DNA from: a virus
Lineage: Duplodnaviria > Heunggongvirae > Uroviricota > Caudoviricetes
DNA length: 24,041 bases
Virus record (IMG/VR): IMGVR_UViG_2703718827_000006
Strand: one strand, 5' to 3'
Part shown: in pieces, positions 12,370-13,035 of the stretch
How the letters are laid out: the number at the start of each line of letters is the position of its first letter
How positions within the stretch are numbered: the first letter of the stretch is position 1
Notes under the pieces: generated by a model
The model's input: only the letters and a program-made list of their open reading frames with translations
Told to the model about the DNA's origin: nothing
Database searches by the model: none
Program-made: the position numbers and the translations under genes

Positions 12370-13035
12370 TCAAAGCTCTGAGTCTACAGGCTCATGATAA
12401 AGGTTTACAGGGTAGTGTATAACCTCATAATTAAGTTGACTAACAGTGTGAGTATGTTGACTGTAAAAAACCAATGGGTTTCTCTTACAAGGAGTTATCG
12501 AGATAGACTTACAAGCATGAATTCTTGGAGCCGATTTATCTAAATGAGCCTTCCACTTAGTCATCATTTCATTACATTTTTTATTACGCGTATATATAAT
12601 TAACCCACCACTTGCACTGTCTACAGTACCAGTGCTATATCGCTCAGTGAGTTGTGCATACCCTTTAAATAAATAACTATATGAACCAGTGTGTTTTTTG
12701 GCCTCGCCATGCCAAGTAAATCTATTCAACTTTATTGTTATATCACAATGACCTCGTTGATTATTTTCATGATATGCTTCAATTCCCATATCTTTATTTT
12801 TTATATTTGCCAGTAAAATTAAAGTAAGCTGATCTTCTGTTAAATCAAAATTCAATTTATTTGAATTTTCCTCAATTGCCTGTACAGCAGAATCAAGCTC
12901 AATTCTTACAAACTGTTTGAAGTTCTCATACGACTGGAGAGCAAACCTAACGCGAGTAATAGAAGCATTGATACGCTGAAGAAAAATATCATTATCAATT
13001 TCAGCTAAACTCATTGGTGCAGACATTTTTAACAT
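12370..13035 (-). CDS. Hypothetical protein, third gene of the cargo operon (candidate effector; possible PD-(D/E)xK-like motif)
   Basis: 221 aa, ATG start overlapping the upstream stop. Contains ...GHCDITIKLNRFTWHGEAKK..., reminiscent of a D...E-x-K nuclease core. This is an eyeballed motif, not a validated domain. Confidence 0.55.
   Translation of the reverse strand: MLKMSAPMSLAEIDNDIFLQRINASITRVRFALQSYENFKQFVRIELDSAVQAIEENSNKLNFDLTEDQLTLILLANIKNKDMGIEAYHENNQRGHCDITIKLNRFTWHGEAKKHTGSYSYLFKGYAQLTERYSTGTVDSASGGLIIYTRNKKCNEMMTKWKAHLDKSAPRIHACKSISITPCKRNPLVFYSQHTHTVSQLNYEVIHYPVNLYHEPVDSEL

Follow-up and report, generated by a model that had tools for sequence, protein, structure and literature searches.

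A three-gene cassette of P2-like and Stx-converting phages encodes a predicted PD-(D/E)xK nuclease paired with an acidic protein

The EcoprrI restriction enzyme keeps the nuclease PrrC latent until a phage anti-restriction peptide frees it. Other nuclease effectors include HamA of Hachiman, NucC, Can2/Card1, Cap4, and McrC. In the prophage-encoded exclusion system RexAB of lambda, RexA serves as the sensor; it is RdgC-like and binds DNA non-specifically (PMC11077077). In P2-like prophages, the interval between gene Q and cos/gpA is a defence hotspot (Rousset et al. 2022, PMC9122126). For Rst_3HP ('hp + hp + hp'), a set of three hypothetical genes located in this hotspot between Q and A, activity against phage P1 has been validated (PMC9122126). 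In this article, we describe a cassette of three genes, A, B, and C, in this interval, and we compare it with these systems.

The window, that is, the whole analysed stretch of 24,041 nucleotides (IMG/VR record IMGVR_UViG_2703718827_000006), is DNA of a P2-like E. coli prophage. The genes for capsid (N), scaffold (O), terminase (P), and portal (Q) are followed by three minus-strand genes, a cos-like region, DinI-like genes, and the phage replication gene A. Composition profile and gene order delimit an AT-rich cargo island at 12336-14720, between the portal gene Q and the cos-like region. All on the minus strand, the island carries cassette gene A (13482-14588, 368 aa, or to 14597 and 371 aa from an upstream GTG), gene B (an ORF at 13035-13469 from the RefSeq start, 144 aa, or to 13481 and 148 aa from an upstream TTG), and gene C (12370-13035, 221 aa). 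The product of gene B is acidic, with a pI of 4.3. Genes B and C overlap by one base, 13035. The original prediction placed C third in an operon, and the trio is indeed co-directional and closely packed; RefSeq calls the same three genes. A terminator scan located a palindromic hairpin with A and T runs at its sides at 12309-12334, between the convergent genes for portal Q and C, and this hairpin is likely a bidirectional terminator. A scan for a sigma-70 promoter upstream of gene A gave matches only at chance level.

The GC content of the cassette is about 33%, compared with about 55% in the phage core genes, and the cassette is therefore regarded as acquired cargo. In the minus-strand reading, the cos-like sequence at about 14745-14810 is similar to cos-proximal sequences that Rousset et al. 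cloned. In their Table S5A, where hotspot loci are catalogued, exactly WP_021580613/14/15 are included, and the cassette proteins are absent from their tables of tested systems (PMC9122126). Among 5426 complete E. coli genomes, only 21 have the cassette. Two other features of the prophage were observed. Between cos and a DinI-like gene, a stretch of about 720 bases includes an ORF at 15110-15535 (plus strand) for 141 aa with a signal-peptide-like N-terminus (MKSFYVLILILVASFVSVPVQAVTA...). According to coordinate offsets, this stretch is missing from the TUM13066 prophage, whose cassette is identical, and it appears to be another cargo segment. The portal gene is an intact 345-aa ORF in the window (11268-12305), whereas RefSeq marks it as frameshifted in TUM13066 (NZ_CP128919.1, positions 10964-12006 of locus L001), so at least one prophage carrying the cassette may be defective.

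Gene C, the predicted effector gene, contains GHCDITIKLNRFTWHGEAKK, and its residue n is encoded by bases 13035-3(n-1)-2 to 13035-3(n-1). A possible PD-(D/E)xK-type nuclease motif had been pointed out by eye at 12697-12750. The numbering of its residues as D98, E111, and K113 is correct, as this span on the minus strand codes exactly for H96 to K113 (H96-C-D98-ITIKLNRFTW-H-G-E111-A-K113), with the codons of D98 at 12742-12744, E111 at 12703-12705, and K113 at 12697-12699. The concern that the motif could be coincidental was justified for the motif by itself: the loose pattern D-h-x(7-19)-[DE]-x-K was found in 29% of 20,000 shuffles of protein C, and a stricter form of it was found in 2% of shuffles. 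It is conservation and fold, not the motif alone, that raise it above chance.

A word-indexed search retrieved only 38 relatives of C, and almost all of the named ones were from Enterobacterales. In these relatives, E67, D68, H89, G95, H96, D98, W108, E111, A112, K113, H115, Q128, R132, and Y133 are invariant. An exhaustive profile search over 1.84 billion representatives enlarged the family to 578 clusters (50% identity) at E ≤1e-3, with 138 at E ≤1e-30, from Proteobacteria, Cyanobacteria, and Bacteroidota. When 151 representatives with pairwise identity of at most 50% were aligned, G95, D98, E111, K113, and Y133 were conserved in 151 of 151, E67, W108, G125, Q128, R132, and H207 in 99%, and L129 at 0.97. 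E67 (codon at 12835-12837) is also invariant in the family alignment A2, and D...ExK is present in 148 of 148 distant representatives. The motif Q128-L-T-E-R132-Y133, which belongs to the core helix after the third strand, is encoded at 12637-12654. Conservation of 96-100% extends to residues outside the classical PD-(D/E)xK motif, namely W108, R132, Y133, W161, H207, and P216, as well as H89, H96, and H196. They include aromatic residues and histidines of the C-terminal beta region. Substrate binding, a second metal, or a docking surface for B are possible roles of these extra residues.

AlphaFold2 was run on the family alignment of C, and secondary structure was assigned by DSSP. The model has a mean pLDDT of 90.3 and a pTM of 0.86. 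Two N-terminal helices (10-32 and 36-56) precede a core made of helix 67-76, strands 85-88, 99-103, and 106-115, helix 119-131, and strand 142-149, which is the alpha-beta-beta-beta-alpha-beta arrangement of the superfamily. The original prediction had proposed fold prediction as its check, and the residues fall where the superfamily places them. In the model, D98 lies directly before strand 99-103 (beta2), in the position of the catalytic Asp at the beta2 start, and E111-A-K113 lies within strand 106-115 (beta3), in the position of the (D/E)-x-K; both are kept in 151 of 151 representatives. E67, the first residue of helix 67-76, corresponds in the model to the extra acidic residue on the first core helix and is a probable third metal ligand. 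Together, prediction and conservation show that C has the restriction-endonuclease fold and that its catalytic set is complete and invariant. The predicted active site consists of E67, D98, and E111-x-K113, with Q128 (on helix 119-131), R132, and Y133 in supporting positions. The invariant D98/E111/K113 and the modelled core thus support the reading of gene C as a PD-(D/E)xK-type nuclease gene. Such a fold is unsurprising, since nuclease effectors are common in bacterial immunity.

Sequence databases offer little on the cassette. None of its three proteins has a significant match in PADLOC, Pfam, or NCBIfam, and their matches in PHROGs are only to families of 'unknown function'. Protein C has no Pfam or NCBIfam match even at E up to 1, and the gathering threshold was reached for it by none of the curated PD-(D/E)xK families in Pfam and NCBIfam. 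PDB sequence searches with protein C and two profiles gave only chance-level matches. Among 81 diverse C members, there were sub-threshold Pfam hints of PDDEXK_9 (4 of 81, best E 0.014), PDDEXK_6, and Mrr_cat. C founds a large, uncharacterised family. In PADLOC, 25 of the 81 diverse members match the candidate PDC-S54 at about positions 247-367 of 410 (best E 1.4e-10), and the matched C-terminal third covers the catalytic core of C. However, PDC-S54 stands for a candidate system of one gene, at about twice the length of C, and protein C itself does not match it even at E up to 1.

At the level of structure, the best matches of the C model are DNA endonucleases, with BamHI-like type II enzymes as the closest relatives, and the best PDB match in the Foldseek search is McrC. 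Identity between C and the BamHI-like enzymes OkrAI, BamHI, BstYI, and BglII is only 7-8%, which indicates no relationship at the sequence level. C also differs from them by its two extra N-terminal helices (10-56) and by a C-terminal beta-hairpin region with W161, H207, and P216. BamHI-like enzymes are paired with a modification enzyme, whereas C is paired with an acidic B domain. Genes A and B contain no methyltransferase domain, and the Dam-like methylase of the prophage sits in the replication module. Because the cassette has no methyltransferase and C has no sequence relationship to these enzymes, membership in the BamHI-like type II restriction-modification family was rejected. The cassette was likewise found to be distinct from Rst_3HP. 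The Rst_3HP proteins are about 334, 355, and 226 aa long and unrelated in sequence, PADLOC gives no match, and the cassette proteins appear only in the catalogue of Table S5A.

The predicted fold of gene A is of the type found in RdgC (a DNA-binding protein), RexA, and Iml3-Chl4, which makes its product a candidate DNA-binding sensor. This is where the cassette resembles lambda RexAB. In contrast to RexAB, the cassette has no RexB-like membrane protein, its predicted effector is a soluble nuclease, and A has no sequence similarity to RexA. B and C match no membrane-protein family in PADLOC, Pfam, NCBIfam, or PHROGs. The cassette was not classified as RexAB, with C modelled as a globular nuclease, B an acidic protein of 144 aa, and no match in PADLOC. 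Across the family loci, the median pI of B is 4.7. A search of 39 B members gave no Pfam match, and the B profile gave no match in the PDB. As judged from these searches, B is a domain without known homologue and a putative new control element.

To follow the cassette beyond Enterobacterales, one genome per species was scanned for degenerate DNA that encodes W-x-[GA]-E-A-K...G-[FY]-x-Q-L-x-x-R-Y. The scan returned at least 120 loci. Those listed are all true members of the C family, and Alpha-, Beta-, and Gammaproteobacteria, Cyanobacteria, and Bacteroidales are represented among them. At least 83 loci are collinear, with A of about 350-380 aa, B of about 135 aa, and C of about 210 aa. Among the matches listed, 90 stand-alone C genes had sufficient sequence before them, and 75 of these have a homologue of A upstream. 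In the same listing, 102 of 103 stand-alone C loci encode a B domain immediately upstream of C. B is a separate gene in 90 of these 102 listed loci and a C-terminal fusion to a larger protein in 12. The single locus without an upstream B is an ORF-calling artefact. Detection of B depended on the profile used: a narrow HMM from eight Enterobacterales sequences failed to detect about half of them, and a broader HMM, built from ORFs between neighbours, recovered the missing B genes and the fused B tails. No B-C or A-C fusions occur among 186 C-family representatives. By comparative genomics, C is always encoded with a predicted acidic B domain upstream, usually translationally coupled, and B and C appear as an obligate pair joined to interchangeable partners, mostly of immune type.

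The cassette is carried by various mobile elements. Seven Stx1a-converting phages have A, B, and C (350, 130, and 221 aa) between the late antiterminator gene Q and stx1A/stx1B; in phage Stx1_499 (LC567825.1), the cassette is at 1975-4082 of locus L126. This position would permit expression with or near the toxin genes. A protein-level search also found the cassette in Klebsiella phage KP12, whereas megablast of the cassette against phage records gave no match. Plasmids carry the cassette as well, and a 6-kb mobilisable Col plasmid has B and C, with an incomplete gene table that shows nothing in the 1.1 kb upstream. The trio is present in a metagenome at 35% identity, and in Citrobacter it lies outside any P2 context. 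In Citrobacter braakii (locus L002, 2734-4072 and 8951-11196), the cassette lies in an island whose neighbours are genes for a WYL-domain regulator, for a pyocin S-type toxin paired with CdiI-like immunity, and for a transposase.

At 15 listed C loci without A, another gene is directly upstream, and its stop mostly overlaps the start of C. These alternative partners are a complete Type ISP restriction-modification enzyme (eight loci), an HsdR-like helicase, a TIR protein, and an EF-Tu paralogue. Their C-terminal tails of about 130-170 aa had been predicted to be B domains, and the broad profile confirmed all of them (E 1e-16 to 1e-39). The full-length Type ISP enzymes (L038, L070, L097, L077, L051, L006, L043, and L082; e.g., 1554-6887 of L082, minus strand) consist of an Mrr nuclease, helicase, coupler, methylase, and TRD, followed by a C-terminal B of about 130 aa. 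Since a C gene follows and mostly overlaps their stop, these enzymes have a second, separate nuclease.

Two partners are paralogues of components of the translation machinery. In Litoreibacter roseus, a complete EF-Tu paralogue (4575-6293 of L037, plus strand; GTP_EFTU, D2, and D3 at residues 16-395) has a B domain at residues 448-566 (E 5e-21). It lies directly upstream of a C-family nuclease gene and is preceded by a gene for a GHKL (HATPase_c_3) ATPase (2509-4464). This paralogue may serve an immune operon as a translation-factor 'bait'. In Nioella sp., a ribosomal protein S3 paralogue with KH_2 and Ribosomal_S3_C domains (743-1804 of L053, minus strand) has a C-terminal tail of about 150 aa with weak similarity to B (E 7e-5). 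This gene is also directly upstream of a C nuclease gene; the upstream gene (1931-3073) codes for an S24-peptidase protein, and there is no ribosomal operon context.

The C domain is also found without B. In Cyanobacteria, it forms the C-terminus of NACHT or NB-ARC proteins with HEAT repeats (about 850-1200 aa; P0103, P0133, P0146, P0157, P0163, P0169, P0219, and P0215; loci L012, L052, L078, L110, and L124). The effector follows the repeats at the C-terminus in these fusions, whereas effectors are usually N-terminal. The fusions support an effector role for the C domain. They do not make the prophage locus a member of the STAND/NLR group, and its cassette has no NACHT or NB-ARC NTPase. Another protein, P0206 (356 aa), joins a C-family nuclease domain (27-214) to a LexA-like S24 peptidase domain (234-349), and the nuclease might be controlled by RecA-stimulated self-cleavage.

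We favour as probable on balance the reading that C is a catalytically competent, metal-dependent nuclease and the effector of an A-B-C anti-phage cassette in the hotspot, whose cutting of DNA aborts infection. A defence role of the cassette as such is likely. The effector reading draws on the location in the P2 hotspot, the conserved synteny, the carriage by mobile elements, the immune-type partners, the PDC-S54 matches, and the RdgC-like A. In the mechanism proposed, B would dock C and keep the nuclease silent, and the variable partner would be the part for sensing or primary defence. In this prophage, the partner would be A, which, like RdgC and RexA, probably binds DNA or an intermediate of replication or recombination; elsewhere, it would be the Type ISP enzyme, the HsdR-like helicase, the TIR protein, or the EF-Tu paralogue. 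A phage-dependent change in the partner would release or activate C, which would then cut DNA and stop the infection, probably at a cost to the cell.

By analogy, the cassette functionally seems to resemble most closely the partner-controlled latent nucleases, HamA-HamB and PrrC-EcoprrI. The likeness to PrrC-EcoprrI is seen in those family members in which B is the C-terminal tail of a Type ISP or HsdR-like enzyme and C is translationally coupled behind it. However, C has no sequence or fold relation to PrrC (ABC-ATPase and HEPN) or to PARIS AriAB, and a guard behaviour of B-C as in the abortive-infection systems PrrC-EcoprrI and PARIS is inferred. Unlike HamA, NucC, Can2/Card1, Cap4, and McrC, C in this cassette has no helicase partner and is predicted to be controlled via the B domain. 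It also has no CARF, SAVED, or cyclic-nucleotide-binding domain.

A more speculative and rather unlikely proposal is that B and C form a portable 'armed tether', in which B docks a latent nuclease on bait proteins that are copies or relatives of what phages attack or bind. The baits would be the Type ISP and HsdR-like enzymes, the RdgC-like A at this locus, and the EF-Tu and S3 paralogues, and a phage inhibitor or modifier that strikes a bait would release the nuclease. Such an arrangement would be a bacterial counterpart of the integrated decoys or guards of plant NLRs.

Several features of B and C are also those of a toxin-antitoxin-style addiction module that stabilises mobile elements, with B neutralising C and A as an accessory regulator. 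B is small, acidic (pI 4.3-4.7), always just upstream of C, and translationally coupled, and the cassette is found on several kinds of prophage and on small plasmids beside a RelE/ParE module. We nevertheless regard this explanation as unlikely, as the repeated fusion of B to large defence enzymes (Type ISP, HsdR-like, TIR) is atypical of antitoxins, C is fused to NACHT-HEAT STAND proteins without B, and A is kept in those 75 of 90 loci among the matches listed. Toxin-antitoxin and abortive-infection functions are in any case compatible with each other. C could also be a ribonuclease, directed for example at tRNA or rRNA, that halts infection by shutting down translation. Translation-factor partners, however, occur in just 2 of about 100 loci among the matches listed, the majority of partners are proteins with DNA as their target (the RdgC-like A, Type ISP, HsdR-like), and the best structural matches are DNA endonucleases, all of which makes a ribonuclease distinctly improbable.

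The cassette could instead serve the phage itself, with C as a nuclease associated with recombination, replication, or packaging, or in counter-defence. It is phage-borne, adjoins cos and replication genes, and includes a protein that resembles the recombination-associated RdgC. This explanation is very doubtful, given that the cassette is variable cargo (the 21 of 5426 complete E. coli genomes mentioned above) with a GC content unlike that of the phage core, that it is linked to NACHT, TIR, and restriction-modification proteins, and that it is found on plasmids and chromosomally in Cyanobacteria and Alphaproteobacteria. Finally, the frequency of the loose motif in shuffled sequences and the lack of a sequence-level match to known nuclease families would be expected if D...ExK were coincidental and C were a degenerate PD-(D/E)xK-like binding domain or had another fold. 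With the conservation and model described above, this explanation is already largely refuted and is hardly credible.

A literature search with the accessions, PDC-S54, Type ISP- and EF-Tu-linked nuclease modules, and decoy EF-Tu paralogues as subjects gave no account of the system, and neither the C family nor the modular B-C arrangement appears to have been described in the literature searched. The analysis defines a conserved cassette, in which an RdgC-like protein accompanies an acidic adaptor and a nuclease, on P2-like phages, Stx-converting phages, and plasmids, and its nuclease represents a family of 578 clusters without a curated sequence family or a solved structure. The adaptor and nuclease are a movable module on complete restriction enzymes, TIR proteins, and translation-factor paralogues, and in NACHT-HEAT proteins the nuclease is attached without the adaptor. 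Should the cassette prove to protect against phage, it would be a new system for the catalogue, and its three small E. coli genes would be a tractable model of how a latent nuclease is tethered and released. It might then also be a model for decoy-based sensing in bacteria. If B and C do act as an armed tether, one effector module would be reused to guard many host targets.
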